From positions 1-44,174 of the forward strand of contig JYFJ02003281.1 in the NCBI GenBank assembly GCA_000934665.2: DNA of 44,174 bases, in the 5' to 3' direction. A program made the position numbers and the translations under genes. Source of the stretch: Catajapyx aquilonaris. Lineage: Eukaryota. Positions 10,594-40,345 of the stretch are shown piece by piece (position 1 is the first letter of the stretch; every line of letters starts with the position of its first letter). The notes beneath the pieces are model-generated. The model searched no databases, had not been told where the DNA came from, and saw nothing but the letters and a program-made list of their open reading frames with translations.

Positions 10594-12234
10594 TGTCCAG
10601 CTTGCTTGGGCACATGGGGTGGGGGTAATGATTGGCCTTTCTGTAGGAATGGAGACGCAGTTGGAATGGATTGGAGATGCTAACCACGTTGGAATGAAGC
10701 CTCAGTTATGTTGGTGGGATGGAGTTGACTGTTTGCCATAACCGCAATGGCGAACTTTTAGTGAAAGATTGTCTACAGCATAGATCGCTAATGTTGGGCC
10801 CCTTGAACAATTGGAAATCACTCACTATTTAGTGAAATAGTGGCCATCATTACAGTGCTGTCCACCTTTCTTGACAAAACGCAAACAATTTGCATGAACA
10901 CTTTGCAGTTATGACAGTTTCCCACCTTTGAAGTGGAATGTTGGCTGACTGAGATTGACAGTCAAAGTTGAATGGTTTGGTATCACAGACTATTTGACAG
11001 GAGCATCTTGGGTGATAATTTCTGCCATCTTGAGGGAGCATGTTCCCACCACCTCTTTTTTGCAGCCTATTCACACACACATACACAAAAAAAACCATGC
11101 ACCGTCTTCCATTGTTGCCAGGTAAATAACACTCCTGCTCTAATAATATTATTAATATTATTTTTTCTGTCACAGGGCAAGTTCCTACATGACGGTGTGC
11201 TTTGATTAAATTCTCTGTCCGGATAGTTTGTATATTAATTATTGCGTAATCCTGAGGGAGAGCCAAACAAATGAACCATGCCTGTTATAAACATGTGCAT
11301 TTATAAGTGCTGACTGAATTCCATTTGTGGTTTTGCTCACAGTTCTCTTTGTTTTTAATACCATTGCTGCAACATAAAAAGATTAACTCTCATTAGAAGC
11401 TGTGATAATCAACCTCATTATTTTTTTTTTTGTGAGGCACTAGTTTGGGGGTCCATGGCACATTTTCTTGGCTACCACTTGGTATTTTGTTGTTTATGAT
11501 GACGCTGACATTATCATGTTATGCTATACCTGTGTGTAATATCCTATCCCGCCCACCCACAAACCCAAGTGGTAATCATTAAGCTAGTCTGTAGGAATTA
11601 TGTAAAAAAAAAACACACATGTCAATTTCTCCCCCCAATAGCCCCCTTCTTTTGACTTGAATAAATAAAGCGAGTGATAGGCTCAATATTCTTACGAGTA
11701 TTATTGTGTGGCAGTGCTGGGGGGGGGGGGGNGGGTTAGGAGGTACAGTTTTCTCAGAAGTGTATGTATCATGTTACGTACATTATTGGTCCACCATTTC
11801 CTAAAAACCAATATGACAAGAGTTTGACCAACTTTAGGTCCGGTTGAATCCATCAGAGGAAAAAATAATGATTAGTTTGCAATATTGTAGTCTGGATTAT
11901 TGTACAGTATTGATGCTGCACTTTTGATCCTAGCTCATAACACCTAGATGCGATAAAATAGTACTTGCAAGCATAGAAGTGATGCGTAGACTATGGCCAG
12001 AGAGGTATGCCGAACAACACACTTTACTTTCATATGAGGCGCGTCGTAAATGGGGCGGTAACGATTGTGGTATCGGTAGGGTGCTACCCGCAAATATTTC
12101 TGGAGATGTCCAACCAGGAGCAGACTCTTACTGAGTGGCTGCTTCTGATTGGCCCTGGTCGCCATCACCCCCTGAGAGCTCCCATCCTATTGGTAGTAAG
12201 CGAAACACCGGCGTGCGTTGTGTTGTGCTGAGAC

Positions 12235-13546
12235 ATGCGGATGATGAACGGGCCTCCTCTCCGCCCCGGGATGGCCCCGGGGCCGCCCCACCACCGTCCC
12301 CGCGGGCCACACCCGCCCCGAGGCATGGGCGGACCACCGAGGGGACCGCCTCCTCCGGGCCACCCCATGCGAATGATGCACCCCCCACCCGGAGGCCCGC
12401 CGATGGGACCGCCCATGGGCTGCCCTCCTCGCGGCCCGCCCTTCCCGCCGGGGCCACCGGGCCCTCCCAGGGGCATGGGCCCTCCGCCGCCGCCCCCTCC
12501 GCCACACCTGCGCGGGATGCGGCCACCGGGGCCTCCCATGTTCCCGCCCGGTCCACCGCCACCGGGGCACGGGCTGGGCCCTCCTCCCCCGCACCCCAGG
12601 AACAGGATGGCCTTCAGGGGACGGCCTCGCATGATGGGGATGAGGCCCAGGAAGCCATATTACCCAACACCCAACAAGAAGAACCCATTCATACAGCCGG
12701 TGGTGAGACATTTATTATATCCTTTATGCCCCTGGTATACTAAACTTGGTTGCACTATCGGCTGGCAATAGATCAGGCTAGTTGTCATGCATTTCACTGC
12801 ATTTGTACATGTTGGCACATGTTGAGAGTTATGACTTGTGGATGCATTTGGTCTGCATAATGTTGTATAGATAAAAGGATGTCATGATGTTTATGGTAGA
12901 GAGTATCAGGGCTGAAGGGTGTCTATAACCTCCCAGGAACAGGAGCTCAATAAGCCATGGATTACTGAGGCTATGAAGGATGAGATCCTGAAGCGCCATC
13001 ACATGAACCAAAAGGCAAAGAAGACTGGGAATCCTGATGATTGGGAAGCGTTCAAGAGCCAGAGGAACAGGGTCAGCACCATGGTCCAGGAAGCCAAACT
13101 GGAGTACATTGGAAGCCATCCTGAAGAGGTCAGGGGACGTTTCATTTGCTGACATATTAACTTTTGCTTCCTGTATGTTTTATCCTCAACCCTATTGCTG
13201 TGTGATTGGTCCAAGTCACTTTGACACAAGCAAAAGGGTTGAATTCTTTCTTAATAGTTCCGTATTCATAGCACAGTCGCATCCTCTTGGGCAGCCATGT
13301 TGCTGTATATCTGTTGTGTGAATGAAATTTATAATCATTAACTTATTCAAAGGCAATTTTTAAACATAGTCCCAAGTAAGAAGTGATATATTTAGCTAGG
13401 CATATATCTTGAATCTTCACAATTTCCTATGTGTATTTCTTGATTACTGGAAGGTATTAATTAATCTGATGTCACATGGAATTCAATTGCAGGACATAGA
13501 TAAAATCATGGCTGAAGTGGAGACTAATTCTGGGCCGATGTTGTAA
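12235..13546 (+). CDS. Pro/Gly/Met-rich protein with a C-terminal helical domain, fs(1)K10-like (short isoform of the locus)
   Basis: Exons 12235-12702, 12937-13128 (NKPWITEAMKDEILKR...DWEAFKSQRNRVSTMVQEAKLEYIG) and 13493-13546 (DIDKIMAEVETNSGPML*), all phase 0. An AATAAA lies near 13998. The resemblance to the Drosophila K10 C-terminus is from memory. Confidence 0.7.
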
Positions 13547-16494: not shown

Positions 16495-18797
16495 AGTCAT
16501 ATGTGGGAGGATGAAACTGGCAGTGAAGATTTTCATGGCCATGTAGCTCGTAACACGAAGCCTTTCCATTGCGACAACTGTGACAGAGATTTTGCAACTG
16601 AGGAGAAACTAGAAGAACACAATTCAGAGCATATTGTGTGCAATGTGGATGGTTGTGGGCTCAAGATGCATCCAAAGCTGATGGAAAAGCATTTCTTTAT
16701 GCAGCATCAGACAGGACTCTTTTCTAGGATAACAGGGATTGATCCGGAGAAGTGGAGAGAAGAACGGAGAAGGTAAATGTGATACACAGTGTTCCAACTG
16801 TCAGTCAGGAAGGTTGGCATGTACTGCATACATGCAAGTGGTCTTTACATTTAAGAAATCAAATGGGCTGTAATAATAATGTGCACAGGTTTTTTTTTTC
16901 TTTCAAATTTTCAAATGCAGCAACAAGTGATGTAAAACTGTCTATGCTAATACCTCCCTTGCACTTCTGCAGAAATGCCCTGCTGCTGCTTGACAATCAA
17001 CAGTAAAAGTCATTCAAGTATTGAAGTACCAGTTATAATATTTTTATATTAAGAAAATTTTTCGAGGCTTCTCTTGTGATTGTTGTGACATAGCGTATAT
17101 TGCCAGTGTATGTATTAGAGAGAGTTGTATTTTGCAGATGTTATCCAACGACTACTAATGTAGCCAGGAAAAAAGAAACTGGTGAAACTGAAAGATTAGG
17201 ACACTTCAATCGTAACACGAATTGGCAGCCTGTAAGGGGCAGGGGTAGAGGAAGGGGTCGAGGCTTTGCTTCACAACCCAGGCCAAGGATGGAGCCCAAG
17301 TTCATTTTTGTGGAGCCTCCTGAGCCACAGGAGAAAATTAGGGATGTTTTGCCATTTGGGGGAGCAAGTGAGTATATTTTTTACCTTCTCATAATTGCTC
17401 TTTAAGACTGGGTTTGTGACGTTTCTTCCCATTTCAGAAGACATTTTGTGTTCATACGACGGAAGTGCAACTGTGGCAGGAAGTGCGAATCCATTGGCAG
17501 AATCATTGGCTGGATTCAGTGACTCAGAAACAGAGGAAGGTGAAGAGAAGCCTGCTGTGATTACCTCAGCCCTAGGATTGTTGGCTGGAGCATATGGATC
17601 TGACAGTGAACTAGAAGGTGTGGCATTAGTGTTGGTAGTTGTATGCTAATTACTATCACTTAAATAATATTAGTATTTAAAAAAACAAGTGCCACCAAAG
17701 GGAAGTAGTGTGATGTGAGTTGTTTTCCAAATTTATTCTTTCACTTTTATAAGGAGAGAATTGTGAATATATTGCAAGCCTGATAGTCTTTTAAAATGTG
17801 CATTTGAAGGCTGTAAATTTCATTCTTGTAATTGTTGTGTTTGTTTAGAAGGAGAACTCGTGGAAGAAAAGGCAGTGATTCTACCTCCAAAACCACCTGA
17901 AAAACCAGTTGAAGAACCTTGCACTGTAACTGCACCAAAGGCATCTGTGACCACCAAAGGCACCGCTGACAACAAGCACAAAAGATACAAGAGAAAGAGA
18001 AAGAGGCCAGGACAATCAAAAATTGAAGTGACCCTGGAGAAGAAGAGGGTTGTTCCAAAACACGACTGGCTTAACACTCCTATAAGAAGGAAGATAACTC
18101 TCCTAGAAAATGTGAGTCATTGCCTTCATGTGAATGTTGGACTTCTCTGCTAATAAGAACTTAATTTCAGCTTCTTGCCAAGGACATAGAACATGAAAGG
18201 AATGTGGTTCTTCAGTGTGTTCAATATGTTGTGGAGAAGAAATTTTTTGGTGTTGGTAGTAAGGAACAGACACCACCTAGTGTTTCTGAAGTGAAGACTA
18301 CTGAAGCTTCTCCCTCTACTGATTCTTCCAATCATGTGCTTCAGTGCATCCATCATATTGTTAAGAGTAACTTTTTTGGAGTTGGGAGTGGAACACTAAA
18401 CTCATCCAAGAATACCAGTGAGCAAATTTCCACTGTAGAAGTTACTACCCCTTTTGCTGAAACAACAATTATTACTGAAACTCTGGAACCTTCCACTGGA
18501 GAAGGTACTACCTCTTTTGGTGAAACAACTACTACTGAAACTTCCACTGTAGAAGCTACTGCCTCCTTTTCTGAAACAACTACTTCTGAAACTTCAGATC
18601 CTTCCACTCTAGAAGTCCCTTTAGCTGAAACAACGACGACTGAAACTTCAGAACCTTCCACTGTAGAAGCTGCAGAAGCTCCCTTTGCTGAAACAACAAC
18701 AACTACTACTACTGAAAGTTTTGAACTGCATGGTGGAGGGGATGGTGTTGCAGATGGAATAGAAGTAGAACATGTAAATCATGAGTCTTTTGTATAA
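16495..18797 (+). CDS. NUFIP1: NUFIP1 (box C/D snoRNP assembly factor); 5' exons probably 12235-12702 with or without 12937-13128
   Basis: Exons 16495-16772 (zinc fingers CDNCDRDF...H, CNVDGC; KWREERRR), 17138-17367 (CYPTTTNVARKK), 17438-17617 (LLAGAYGSDSE), 17849-18111 and 18171-18797 (LLAKDIEHERNVVLQCVQYVVEKKFFG). All phases fit and the motifs are characteristic of NUFIP1. Confidence 0.92.
18427..18720 (+). repeat. Coding tandem repeat with a Thr/Glu-rich unit of about 17-21 aa
   Basis: About five copies of TCCACTGTAGAAG...TTTGCTGAAACAACTACTACTGAAAC, encoding STVExxxxFAETTTTET. Confidence 0.85.
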
Positions 18798-19448
18798 GGT
18801 AATTGTGCAGCAGAATTTAATAAACTGAAATTCTGATATTGTTGATTCAGCATGTTATTTCCATCATTATTATACTTAGGTACTGAAGATGCAGGAAGAT
18901 GAGGAAAGCAGTGAGGTAGGACCTGGTTGGGGATGATGTAGAAAAGCATGTCTGAATGAAAATTATTCAGTTGCTCAATCAAAGCCTATTGGGAGATTTT
19001 TTGTCATGTTGTGGTACACTGGACTCCCAATTATCTGTGAGTGGATTATCCTTACACTGTCAAAACTTTTTTTTATAATTATAATTATTTTATTTTAAAG
19101 TTGGAAGCCCACTTGACAGTGTGAACTTGAGTTTAACATAAAACTGTACTTGTAACAGACCTCAAGAATCTAGAGAAACTCAACTGAATTTGGACAATTG
19201 ACTGAAGCTATATTTTTAGGATTGGAAGGGTACCCACTACCTCCATGTTGAAAACATGGAAATATCTGAAATTAAATTGAGCATAAATGTCATTAAATTT
19301 AATGATTTTTGCCAGCATCCTTTCTTGCAGTCCACCAGGATACACTGCAGTATATTAAATTAAATATGCGATTACAAAAGTTTAAAGCACTTTTGGTGTT
19401 TCATTACTGCACGTGAAGCCTTACAGAAGCATTACTTCCTGCAGGCAG

Positions 19449-19990
19449 TCATTTTCTTCGTTTTCCTTGCTCAAGCAGGCACCATCGTCCATCTACCTTC
19501 TCCCACTTCAGACCCATCTCCTTTAGAACTATTCGCAGGCTGCTCACGCTTCCACTGAATCCACTCTCCTTGGCACGCAACTCAGCAAGGATTTCCCGCA
19601 AGGTGGGGTGATGGCCCCCCGACATCATTTCCCTCACAGTCCTCCTAATGCACAACTTGGTGGAGTCGTCCAGCCCCGTGACTGGTGAAGGCCTCTTATG
19701 CTTAAACTTCTCGGGAGTCTTGAGCGGCTCTCCTCTCGCTGCCTTTCTTGCTATCTCGCCCACCGTGGAGAACGAAATCTGGAAACCAACACAGGGAATT
19801 ACTCTCCTGCACACATCACTGCATACATGCAACTCATCCGGCTGACCTTAAGCATGGCAGCGACTCTGTCTCTGACCGCCTCGAAGGGAATGATGGGTCC
19901 TTTCACGTCCCTCTCAGCTTTGCAGAACTCTAGGACCGACAGCACCATCTGCTGCGCTTGGCCGGTGATGGCCTTCCCCTGGTGCGCCAT
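19449..19990 (-). CDS. Two-exon, 157-aa gene encoding only the N-terminal DNA-binding region of a rosa-like Tc1/mariner transposase
   Basis: Exon 19990-19847 (48 codons, MAHQGKAITGQAQQMVLSV...GPIIPFEAVRDRVAAMLK), a 68-bp GT-AG intron at 19846-19779, and exon 19778-19449 (ISFSTVGEI...LKTP...LDDSTKLCIRRTV...PTLREILAEL...FSGSVSSLRIVLKEMGLKW...). The stop codon comes before any DDE domain. Confidence 0.8.
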
Positions 19991-20202
19991 TGCCTCAAGC
20001 TATCCAGCAAACGAAGCTCACTCCAGCTCCAGACCACGCTCCAGACCCGTGCTCCAGACAGACTACTAAGGTCAAAGGCTGTGCCAGGCTTCCAGGCCGC
20101 GCCATTTCCCTGTTGGCAACCCTGAGCGAGGAAAGATGGCGTCCGCCACAACTCCTGATAGCATTTTGTTGTGAAGAACTGAGGAGACGCCGGTCGCTGA
20201 GT
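19991..20202. promoter_or_regulatory. Putative bidirectional promoter
   Basis: A 212-bp GC/CpG-rich interval between divergent ATGs at 19990 (-) and 20203 (+). It contains AAGATGGCG, a YY1/Pho-type core. Confidence 0.55.
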
Positions 20203-22271
20203 ATGGCCCACATATCGTTGAACCAGTACCTCCAGCAGGTGAGCGCGTCTGGGGTGGACGGGAGGAACCTGAGGGATTACATTCATTTGGATTGGGACAG
20301 GGAAAGACAGACGAAAAATATTGGAAAGTATGTGCAGTGTTATACAGTGCAACATTTCTTGATGCAGGTGGAGAGTGCATGGAATGATAAGGATGGGGTG
20401 GCCTTGGCAGAATGGCTGTCATTTGACCATGCCCACTCGCAGAATCCACGCTTGCAATTGAAGGAGCCTGAGGATGCTGTAGAAAGAGTCTTGGACCTGG
20501 TTGGGATGGAGGACGTTGTCTCTGCACATCTCAGGTAGCAATTGGCAATTGGAAACTTGCAGTGCATTTTGTTGTCGTGGCATCCTGGTGTCTGGAATAT
20601 CTCATCAAGTTCCTTACTGCGTGGTGTAGTAAATTTTACTTCTTAAAAATTCTTCCAGATGCCTTTGGGCAGTGAACGAACAAGACTTCATGGACGCTTA
20701 CCGTTGCCAGAGTGTTGTTGTGGCGGTTTTCACTAAGGGTTTCTCATCCATGAAGGACGAGAACTGGGCTCTGCCTGTGGTGGCTGCTATGAGCTTGGAT
20801 TTGCGCAGGTTTGCAGCTCGTGCGGACTGCCAGGCAGGACGTAAAGGGAAGACAGGGGACACACTGCAGAAGGCAGCGGAAGGTCTGATGGGCCTTTTTA
20901 GGGTGTGTGCTGCTGACAACCGATCCTCAGAGGAGGAGACCAAACGATGGGGAATGCTGGGGCTTGTCAACCAGCTTTTTAAGATTTACTTCAGAATCAA
21001 CAAGTTGCATTTGTGCAAACCCCTCGTCAGAGCCATCGAGTCGTCTCCACTGAAGGACCAGTTCTCACTTGGACAGCAAGTCACCTACAAGTATTATGTT
21101 GGGAGGAAAGCCATGTTCGACAGTGATTATAAAGAGTGTGAGTGACTCAGTTCAAATGATGTCTCGATAGTACAACTGATGTGCTAACAAGGGGTCGTGT
21201 TAATGTGTAGCTTGGTAGATTTTAGAAGAATTTTATTGCACAGTATCCATGTTTACTAGTTTGATATTATTCTGTAAGGATATTAACTAACCAAGACTTT
21301 ATTCTTTCAGCGGATGAGTACTTGACGTTTGCATTTGAACATTGCCACCACCAGTGCAAAAAGAACAAGCGGCTGATTCTAACCTATCTCATACCGGTCA
21401 AGATGCTCAGGGTATGTCCACCTACATTCCATTGCCTTGCATTGAACAGTGAGTAATGATGTGGTAAACTACTTGCAGGGCTACTTTCCAAGTCCGATGC
21501 TACTACAAAAATATGACCTACTTCAATTTCGAGATGTGGTGTCAGCCGTGAAGGAGGGGAATGTAGCATTGTTGAATGATGCCTTGCTTGAACATGAGGC
21601 TTTTTTCATCAAGTGTGGGATATACCTCATTCTGGAGAAGCTGAGGCCCATATCCTATCGCAACCTCTTCAAGGCAGTGTAAGTTCTTTTCAGTTGAAGA
21701 TACTTTTTAAAAATCCCATTGACGAATGAGACCTGACTTGAAATGTTGGTTGAAGAGAGGTTCACATATCAGTGAGTTTGTGTAGCCGTGCATTTTGTAT
21801 TCTGCCAAGTCGCTGATATGTAAATGCCTTTGCGTCTTGGTAATTGTGGCGACACAAAATCGTGGATGTGAACACCACGTAATTCTTTGGGGCTCATCGC
21901 ATAGGGATCAGTGCTTATGTGTCTATTCACCTTAGAATTAATCTAATTAGGGAGCTGGGAACTTGTGATAATGAGTTCGCATGTATTAATAATTACCCTC
22001 CCTTCATCAAAGAAGGTATGCAAGTGGTCACTTACACATGTACTTTTGCAGCCACACCATACTCGAGACACATCAGATACCAGTTGAAGCGTTTATGGCA
22101 GCATTGGAGACGGCAAAGGTACCGGATGTTACCATGAACGAAACTGCCTGCATTCTTGCCAACCTGATCTATGAAGGGAAGATCAAGGGTTACATTTCAC
22201 ACCAACATAAGAAGCTGGTTGTCAGCAAACAAATTCCATTTCCATCTTTGACGCAGCCTAATAATAATTGA
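20203..22271 (+). CDS. PCID2: PCI domain-containing protein 2 (TREX-2 subunit)
   Basis: Exons 20203-20238 ([12 protein letters not shown]), 20368-20534, 20659-21137 ([21 protein letters not shown]...[16 protein letters not shown]), 21311-21411, 21479-21678 and 22052-22271 ([32 protein letters not shown]). Confidence 0.96.
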
Positions 22272-38809: not shown

Positions 38810-40345
38810 CAATGCATAATTTATCTGAATATTTACTTGATGAGCACACTAGATTATTGCAGGTACCACAAAATATAGTATATCTTGCATGATGATTAAC
38901 TACGGCTACTTTCCTGTCCCACTATTAGCCATTGGTCCTTCTAATAAACAAACTTCCTCCGTAAGATTCCAACTTGGAGAAGGCCATTGCCAGCATCACT
39001 AACTAACAGTAGGATAAGAAAGTGTCGCCTAGGGGCTTGGATAAACTAGTCCACCAAGCATGTTCAGCAAGGCTGCTGTAGAACCACCATGCAATAATTT
39101 ATCTGCATAATTATCACACATGAGCAAACTAGACTTAGAGGTACCACCATTCACATTTCACTCATATGACACGTACCAGCTGCCTGCTTCATTTAGCAAT
39201 TTTTTGCAATCTGCTCACTTTGAGAGCTATAAAAATATAATTCGCTTCTAGCATGAGGTGGAATACGGTGTATATGTAAGAAGCACAGGCATGATGGAGG
39301 CTGTAAAATAATAAAGGTTGAAACATGTATAGATAAAAATGGATCAATTGCTGTATCTTGCATTCAGAAATTCATTGCAATTTAAGCATGAACTAATGCA
39401 TCTATTCAACTGGTAGTTAATATTTTGAGAACATCTAAGAGTAACTGTTGAGAAGTAAAGCTTAACAATTCAGTGCAAAAATTGCTTACTGAAACAGACA
39501 CCTCCGTAAACTCCTGAAAGAACTAACATATTTCATCTGTATTCCATACTTATGAGAAAACTATAACTTTTTCCAGGAACATATTTATCTGCATATCACA
39601 TATATCCTTAGCCAGGTATTCCTTCCCCAGCAACCATTAAGATTCATCCATATACTTTACATCACACAACACCATAATTTTTCAGGATCCGACACATTTC
39701 ATCTGTTTACAATTTGTAACAACGCCAGAATATTTCAGACACTGTTCCATGAGAATATCTGAAGCTCCTGCAAGAACTACAATTCGCATTTCATCTGTAT
39801 GCCATACCGTATGAGAAAACTAGATGATCTTGCAGAAACATGTGTCACAAATCCTTAGGCCAGTCCTCTCCAACTCCTCTGATATGGAAGGGTACTAAGA
39901 GTCTCCACCACCCTTGATATGGCGATGCAGGTGGTCTACTGTCCCCGAGCAGCTGGTGGGTGGGTCTGCTAACTGCTCCAGACTCAGCTGCAGCGGATAG
40001 AATGGTTTGGGTTGGTTCAGTGTCGTCCACCCAAACGTACTTGGGGACAGCAGAGCGGCTGCAGCGCCAAATCAAGGGTGGTGGAGACCGTCACCATAAG
40101 GCTAGGCTGGGAGTTGCAGGTGGCTGCCTTAGCCAACTATACTTTCCGTAACAAAAATTAATTTCCATTCGTATACTACGCAATAACTTTCATCCCTTTA
40201 CTCTATTCATGACAGTGCCAGAACATTTCAGGAACTGACATTAATATTTCATCTGCATATCAATATGGGCATTTCATACTTGCAAGTACTCTGCAACCAT
40301 TCACATTTTATCTGAATACAAACTAAACTTTGATGAGCATGTCTA
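38810..40345. repeat. Degenerate dispersed/tandem repeat array
   Basis: Recurrent ATTT(C)ATCTG(C/T/A)AT, often followed by ATGAG(A/C)AAACTAGA and TGCAGG(A/T)AC, near 38817, 39096, 39528, 39581, 39693, 39787, 40244 and 40302. Confidence 0.7.
39843..40153. mobile_element. GC-rich fold-back element with TGT...ACA termini (Ginger-like MITE or palindromic solo LTR)
   Basis: Ends TGTCAC / GTAACA. A core stem of about 60 bp (39901-39962 with 40027-40088) has weaker outer arms. No TSD is seen. Confidence 0.55.

Follow-up and report, generated by a model that had tools for sequence, protein, structure and literature searches.

How does a gene that appears to encode only the DNA-binding part of a transposase come to stand intact, and interrupted by an intron, between two host genes, and does it serve the host that carries it? 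A locus on the minus strand of the 44,174-nt stretch of DNA analysed here (hereafter, the window) raises this question. Its anatomy is secure: the fragment of a Sailor transposase that it carries comprises the DNA-binding module only, is immobile and apparently single-copy, and is transcribed and spliced. Domesticated status is put forward here as a hypothesis, with co-option and an unselected remnant about equally probable.

The structure of the gene is as the first-pass annotation drew it from the letters alone (Table 1). Two open pieces join across a 68-nt GT–AG intron into a frame of 157 codons (471 nt) with no internal stops, and the motif series listed in that annotation is really present in the spliced protein. 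The translation of exon 2 closes with five codons without homology, which end in the expected KRRK tail and are followed by TGA. The first ATG lies in a strong context (G at both −3 and +4), and an in-frame TAG stands three codons 5′ of it. The 157-aa product is counted from this predicted start, and 143 codons would be translated if Met15 were used instead. The intron begins with GTCAGC and ends with TTTCCAG, a pyrimidine-rich CAG acceptor, and its retention would lead to a stop after 15 further codons. When the alignment was mapped onto the model of a relative (P0007, below), the intron fell within the first helix-turn-helix (HTH), at the turn that links helix 2 to helix 3. A search for an origin of the intron in local duplication returned only a 10-nt triple repeat. 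Beyond the stop codon, a candidate polyA-like AATGAA lies at about 19405–19400 by manual count, and a search for the two hexamers AATAAA and ATTAAA gave matches at 19303 and 19094.

Table 1 Features of the locus and of its upstream region, in window coordinates
Feature	Position	Strand	Description
Coding exon 1	19990–19847	minus	48 aa; predicted N-terminal arm and helices 1–2 of the first HTH
Predicted start codon ATG	19990–19988	minus	exon 1
Second in-frame ATG (Met15)	19948–19946	minus	exon 1
Intron, spliceosomal GT..AG	19846–19779	minus	68 nt; joint 19778/19847 seen in the X5 contig
Coding exon 2	19778–19449	minus	109 aa (19778–19452) plus TGA (19451–19449)
Helix 3 of the first HTH	19737–19772	minus	predicted, within exon 2
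Basic linker	19668–19736	minus	P.K.K.KRP type, within exon 2
Winged HTH	about 19470–19667	minus	predicted, within exon 2
3′ untranslated stretch, transcribed	19396–19448	minus	minimum extent, from the reach of the spliced X5 contig
Divergent promoter interval	19991–20135	.	common to the gene and PCID2; in a GC/CpG-rich island at about 19400–20300
Three direct GTCTGGAGC copies	20026–20059	minus	exact or near-exact; spacing 12–13 nt; 36–69 nt upstream of the ATG

The spliced form of the gene exists, almost certainly as RNA. Five sequencing runs were considered in all, four of them possibly from the source sample and none recorded as RNA. Run X1 is DNA and possibly the window's source, and run X5 comes from the same organism in another sample and study, its library type being unrecorded. 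A 504-nt X5 contig covers 19396–19778 and 19847–19967 and omits exactly the 68 nt between them (CT..AC on the plus strand), with 121 nt on the shorter side of the joint. Because this contig joins 19778 to 19847 exactly, the splice junction across 19779–19846, for which reads had been called for at the outset, is directly visible. The X1 DNA keeps the intron and lacks the joint: a 13,134-nt contig spans the locus unbroken with no differences from the window, and X1 and X5 both match the window over the gene without a single base difference. We infer that X5 is RNA-derived, because its contigs look transcript-like: one of 1,452 nt begins at 20136 and continues into PCID2, and the intron and 19968–20135 are uncovered. 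The missing cover at these two places and at 19314–19395 is consistent with RNA, rather than being evidence for it. The spliced contig reaches no further upstream than 19967, which leaves 23 nt to the first ATG, and contigs cannot reveal the true 3′ end of a transcript. Together, these data establish, for one run from one study, that the frame is intact, transcribed and correctly processed. A separate X5 contig of 389 nt covers 18926–19313, where the two genes converge; compared with the window it has an additional A after 19294, and it ends near plus-strand ATTAAA hexamers (19271 and 19292) and may represent the 3′ untranslated region of NUFIP1.

The protein was placed by its distant relatives. 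An exhaustive phmmer search with exon 2 collected 82 of them (E = 3.2e-10 to 1e-3; identity 31–47%, none closer). From 81 of these a profile was built, with the window sequence left out and exon 1 unused in collecting relatives. Residues 3–152 of the spliced protein aligned colinearly to profile positions 12–160 (171.6 bits) without a gap where the exons join, and exon 1 alone scored 34.6 bits, against 2.5 for the best of 500 shuffles. Because exon 1 had played no part in gathering the relatives, this score points to homology far beyond chance. In pairwise comparisons, the nearest relatives were 37–39% identical over 137–146 residues (best, 37% over 146 aa, E = 1e-28), and their open reading frames pass uninterrupted across the junction position. 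Against a profile of the binding region alone, the window protein scored 157.4 bits and ranked 38th of 61 as the sole sequence from outside the training set, ahead of a full-length DD83E transposase, which scored 130.8 bits. By these scores its binding region is well preserved and typical of the family.

The relatives also tell which part of a transposase has been kept. DDE_3 was found at E ≤ 0.01 in 15 of the 30 relatives scanned (7 over the Pfam cut-off), always downstream of the region that matches the window. The window protein is colinear with the first ~150 residues of the relatives, and its stop falls ~20–25 columns before the first catalytic D. This bears out the original proposal that the gene holds nothing of an IS630–Tc1–mariner-type transposase but its N-terminal DNA-binding region. 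Many of the 82 relatives are similarly short open-reading-frame fragments (86–300 aa).

Searches that relied on named families or on words recovered less. Pfam gave no match for exon 2 and only a sub-threshold chance match for exon 1 (Acyl-CoA_dh_1, E = 0.031). A word-based protein search with exon 2 yielded 4 candidates of similar length and 459 longer ones, none at E ≤ 0.01. That no orthologue appeared in the protein searches carries no weight, because the databases lack proteins of the host or of its close relatives.

Some relatives may carry an intron at the same place, as one of them hints. The truncated relatives begin at scattered profile positions (41–65), and only P0003 begins at the exon 2 boundary. 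This 111-aa protein, from a 992-nt ENA contig, is the best exon 2 match; it reads Met-Gln and then aligns from exon 2 residue 1. The window's genomic frame likewise reads Gln, from the CAG acceptor, directly ahead of exon 2. A search of the ESM Atlas with exon 2 gave, as leads rather than evidence, winged-HTH and IS630-type clusters at 0.90–0.92. One cluster at 0.92 (134 members, mostly arthropod) is only a lead; its representative has no Pfam match and, at 157 aa, equals the window protein in length.

The catalytic cores of the relatives indicate the transposon family. In the 6 of the 82 relatives in which it was measurable, the spacing from the second D to the E was 82, 82, 82, 82, 83 and 68, the third residue being E throughout. 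Ten relatives are at least 390 aa long; the four left unmeasured (P0017, P0019, P0042 and P0055) lack one or both motifs under the patterns used, and in P0042 a K replaces the E, the spacing being about 84 by manual count. Sailor is defined in PMC8533490 by DD82E (range DD78E–DD111E), with transposases of 323–676 aa, terminal inverted repeats (TIRs) of mostly 23–57 bp, usually beginning with GT or CC, and TATA target-site duplications. The relatives show the same motifs as the published Sailor alignments (YLDETW, DYH.EMN, MDNA.YH and LRLPPYH..LNPIE), and the Sailor binding regions in Fig. S4 of PMC8533490 have the IRR, PTL and LGFK pattern seen in the window protein. On the strength of the DD82/83E spacings and of the motifs that match the PMC8533490 alignments, the data say that the relatives are DD82E/Sailor transposases, rather than rosa/DD41D ones. 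No DD41D/rosa-type protein was present among the 82 phmmer relatives, and none of the Pfam transposase families of Tc1 or mariner type reached its cut-off in the 30 relatives scanned.

The window gene resembles Sailor transposases in its colinear, homologous two-part N-terminal DNA-binding region, with motifs of the D.F..AIRR, PTL and L..LGFK type, and its nearest relatives have the DD82/83E core and PPYH..LNPIE. It differs from Sailor elements in having no catalytic domain, TIRs or TATA duplication and in being a locus, single-copy in the assembly, on a host promoter island; it differs from Sailor transposases in the spliceosomal intron inside its first HTH.

Structure prediction agrees with a DNA-binding module. 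An AlphaFold2 model of exon 2, built with an 82-row alignment, had a mean pLDDT of 90.6, with helices at residues 3–14, 38–53, 60–69 and 78–87, strands at 90–95 and 98–103 (a hairpin spanning 90–103) and an extended basic linker after the first helix. In this model a helix and a linker precede a winged HTH made of three helices and a β-hairpin wing. Its structural matches were middling (VIA Z 7.8–5.8; Foldseek E of at least 0.09), the best being DNA-binding winged-helix domains such as those of ArgR, SAMD1-DNA and Fur. As a stand-in for the spliced window protein we modelled the relative P0007 (38% identical; pLDDT 91.9), whose predicted fold opens with a three-helix HTH and continues through a linker and a winged helix to a long helix running toward the catalytic domain. 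The Foldseek matches of this model were weak (E = 0.0056–0.31); they included DNA-binding portions of TnsB, IstA and Mos1 as well as the Pax6 paired domain. Neither model, of exon 2 or of P0007, had a Foldseek match at E ≤ 0.001. The matches support the predicted fold class, not a function. On the models, the window frame would end just past the wing, at a domain boundary ahead of the P0007-type long helix.

The rest of a transposon was sought in the window. A tblastn search with 11 relatives (8 of them 341–470 aa long) matched only 19452–19829, apart from two other matches at E 0.59–0.66, and no catalytic part was matched at E ≤ 1. No second copy of either exon was found within the 44-kb window. 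None of the 11 inverted-repeat pairs in 17800–21500, all short or imperfect, brackets the gene as TIRs would, and 19980–20210 contains no inverted repeat. The absence of TIRs and of a DDE remnant that had been remarked on by eye is thereby upheld. The same cannot be said of the decayed transposable-element fragments that the first-pass annotation placed elsewhere in the window: Pfam, run on 70 of the 163 window open reading frames of at least 70 aa, gave host domains only and no transposase family.

A k-mer assembly would break at a young multi-copy repeat. The X1 contig crosses the locus unbroken over 13,134 nt, which indicates single-copy behaviour and speaks, indirectly, against the many near-identical copies that had been named as a possible objection. 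The locus appears to be immobile and is single-copy in the assembly, with neither ends nor catalytic capacity detectable in its sequence.

What surrounds the gene is of host origin, and the proposed setting between NUFIP1 and PCID2 is supported by structure-database matches for both neighbours. PCID2 starts at 20204 on the plus strand (match 8r7j_B, E = 9.6e-67), head-to-head with the window gene and with 213 bp between the two ATGs. The NUFIP1 C-terminal motif lies in the plus-strand open reading frame 18165–18794 (match 5l85_B, E = 1.2e-06), the last exon ending at 18797. Farther along, the window holds a Pix/RhoGEF6-7-like gene at ~28–34 kb and a homocysteine S-methyltransferase gene at ~40–42 kb. 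PCID2 is a component of the mRNA-export complex TREX-2. The GC content is 52–60% in the promoter interval versus 33–40% in the flanks, and the observed/expected CpG ratio is 0.65 in the promoter interval and 0.65–0.68 in both exons versus 0.08–0.10 in the flanks. On the 3′ side of the gene, GC falls from 54–59% to 34.5% and the CpG ratio from 0.65–0.68 to 0.10. The gene, with a GC3 of 0.67, sits inside the CpG-rich PCID2 promoter island.

The promoter interval also contains a direct repeat. GTCTGGAGC has four exact matches in the window, three at 20026–20059 and a fourth at 39975–39983, versus 0.31 expected, and none of 100 shuffles reached four. The triplet may be a relic of an element end, a set of promoter elements or binding sites, or a product of chance, and its link to the gene is putative. 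Separately, an 11-nt repeat, GCGCCATTGCC / GCGCCATTTCC, occurs at 19984–19994 and 20099–20109, where it spans the ATG of the gene and a minus-strand ATG at 20105; the latter would open a short upstream open reading frame if the transcript begins further upstream. The window gene and PCID2 both start Met-Ala-His, with nearly identical nine bases.

These observations allow us to propose what the locus may be, and two explanations fit them. One, to which we give a little under an even chance, is that it is a co-opted, DNA-binding-only gene at a host locus, derived from a Sailor (DD82E) transposon. On this account, a Sailor element of the IS630–Tc1–mariner group would have lost its catalytic domain and both ends and retained the three-helix HTH, the basic linker and the winged HTH. 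Minus-strand transcription from the CpG-rich divergent promoter that it has in common with PCID2, followed by removal of the 68-nt intron, would give an mRNA with the intact 157-codon frame. The small basic protein would then enter the nucleus and occupy Sailor-type terminal repeats, or relics of them, without cutting. The outcome would be either a competitor or repressor of the cognate transposase or a co-opted sequence-specific DNA-binding factor, with the GTCTGGAGC triplet just upstream as possible targets. The data bear directly on the anatomy, the homology, the fold, the splicing and the behaviour as a single copy in the assembly; that the protein is translated, binds DNA at such targets and is kept by selection is what we infer. 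That truncated transposases may poison or repress transposition is an idea discussed for Tc1-mariner elements (PMC4120734).

The other explanation, which we regard as having a nearly even claim, is that a young truncated Sailor copy without selected function landed beside the PCID2 promoter, and that one deletion took its 3′ two-thirds and its ends. Here the element would possibly have been intron-bearing already, transcription and splicing would be a by-product of the divergent promoter, and what is left would simply have had too little time to decay. Divergent promoters commonly yield spliced non-coding upstream transcripts, which counts for this explanation.

Much of the evidence can be turned either way. 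Homology stops five codons ahead of the stop codon, and a single deletion could have made that stop by accident; against this, the end of the frame coincides with the predicted structural domain boundary. The abrupt change of GC and CpG where homology ends looks like a deletion breakpoint or the edge of a foreign insert, and high GC, GC3 and retained CpG are as compatible with a recent insertion as with a promoter island. The structural matches, all of them weak (VIA Z below 8, Foldseek E no lower than 0.0056), weigh against co-option. The intact 471-nt frame would be expected of a young copy too, since by a rough estimate from assumed rates about half of neutral copies are still open at 1% divergence, but here the frame needs the exact removal of 68 nt, and that removal is observed. 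The intron, for its part, was perhaps inherited from the parent element, and the uninterrupted open reading frames of the relatives could be transcript assemblies. DNA-binding-only fragments are common debris, as the many short relatives attest, and a lone copy is not unusual for Sailor, which is usually low-copy in invertebrates (PMC8533490). Set against a remnant are the want of any second copy or fragment in 44 kb, a DNA contig unbroken by repeat branching, a strong start context with no 5′ TIR, and a binding-region score within the range of intact transposases.

Two further explanations fare far worse. The first-pass annotation, taken literally, makes the protein a domesticated rosa-type (DD41D Tc1/mariner) DNA-binding domain. 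The motifs it listed are truly in the protein, and DD41D and DD82E belong to the same IS630–Tc1–mariner group with similar paired-type binding regions (PMC8533490, introduction), but all 6 measurable relatives are DD82E, DD83E or a shortened DD68E and none is DD41D, the motifs of both the catalytic core and the binding region match those of named Sailor elements, and no Tc1/mariner Pfam family passed the cut-off in the relatives scanned; by this comparison, drawn from the relatives collected with exon 2, the rosa assignment is very improbable. Hardly any credence is left for a still-mobile element with parts outside the stretch, or for an assembly artefact: Sailor elements do reach 7 kb, with TIRs up to 1362 bp (PMC8533490), but host genes adjoin the locus on both sides (the NUFIP1 stop at ~650 bp, the PCID2 ATG at 213 bp), the window is without DDE homology and TIRs, and two independent data sets agree over the gene with no base differences.

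Genes for DNA-binding proteins that descend from transposases are well known as a kind, and so are truncated repressors. Among the latter, the 66-kDa and KP proteins of the P element are self-encoded truncated transposase repressors. Processed Bari transcripts have been proposed to encode a truncated, poisoning transposase (PMC4120734). Like these products, the window gene would supply the DNA-binding part of a transposase without catalysis, which could compete for transposon ends; unlike them, it is an immobile locus on a host promoter, whereas they are encoded by mobile elements.

SETMAR, CENP-B and the TIGD genes are domesticated host genes derived from IS630-Tc1-mariner or pogo elements. 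They share with the window gene a transposase-derived DNA-binding domain kept at a fixed locus of the host from which transposon ends are absent. They differ from it in having orthologues under purifying selection and in mostly keeping, or fusing, larger parts of the transposase, whereas the source here would be Sailor and the product the binding domain alone. No report of a Sailor-derived host gene was found in the literature searched, which was mostly judged by title, and the parts of PMC8533490 drawn on here speak of domestication only generically. It is possible, though on balance doubtful, that the locus is the first host gene co-opted from Sailor (DD82E), with the binding domain alone, an intron acquired or kept, wiring to the PCID2 divergent promoter and, maybe, recognition of the GTCTGGAGC triplet.

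On that reading, an under-sampled invertebrate lineage would have gained from a transposon a small regulator or a factor of genome defence. Transposase DNA-binding domains are recurrent raw material for new regulators and transposon repressors, and this locus would be an early, legible capture: a fragment trimmed to its binding module, on a housekeeping divergent promoter and correctly spliced. Should comparative data find it conserved, it would be a clean case of a transposase head turning into a host factor; should they not, it would exemplify how convincing a young remnant can look.

The lineage of the host was read from the PCID2 exon at 20633–21142. It had 868 protein matches, none above 71% identity. 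The best matches, at 59–71%, were led by a centipede, with oysters, a cockroach and an orthopteran at 68–69% and fishes, mammals and a lamprey at 61–65%. The host is an invertebrate and probably a protostome, by these identities, from a lineage essentially unsampled in protein collections. A vertebrate host, first suggested by the PCID2, NUFIP1 and RhoGEF6/7-like neighbours, was ruled out by the PCID2 exon identities, the centipede being best. In the parts of PMC8533490 drawn on here (Shi et al. 2021), Sailor is recorded from 206 invertebrate species and none is reported in vertebrates; a Sailor derivative in this host is taxonomically unsurprising given that spread.

Elsewhere in the window, a scan for bacterial promoters and terminators returned nothing and is irrelevant for an animal. 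The interval 12131–12768 contains ~600 nt in which several frames, on both strands, lack stops, with open reading frames of 160–200 aa that have no Pfam match, and a single N stands just upstream of it, at 11732. The last exon of NUFIP1 (18165–18797) encodes a Thr/Glu/Ser-rich tail after the conserved C-terminal motif, and within this tail 18486–18595 is a tandem repeat with a 51-nt unit (2.2 copies, 86% matches). With an observed/expected CpG ratio of 0.08 and a GC3 of 0.21, that exon stands in sharp contrast to the neighbouring gene.
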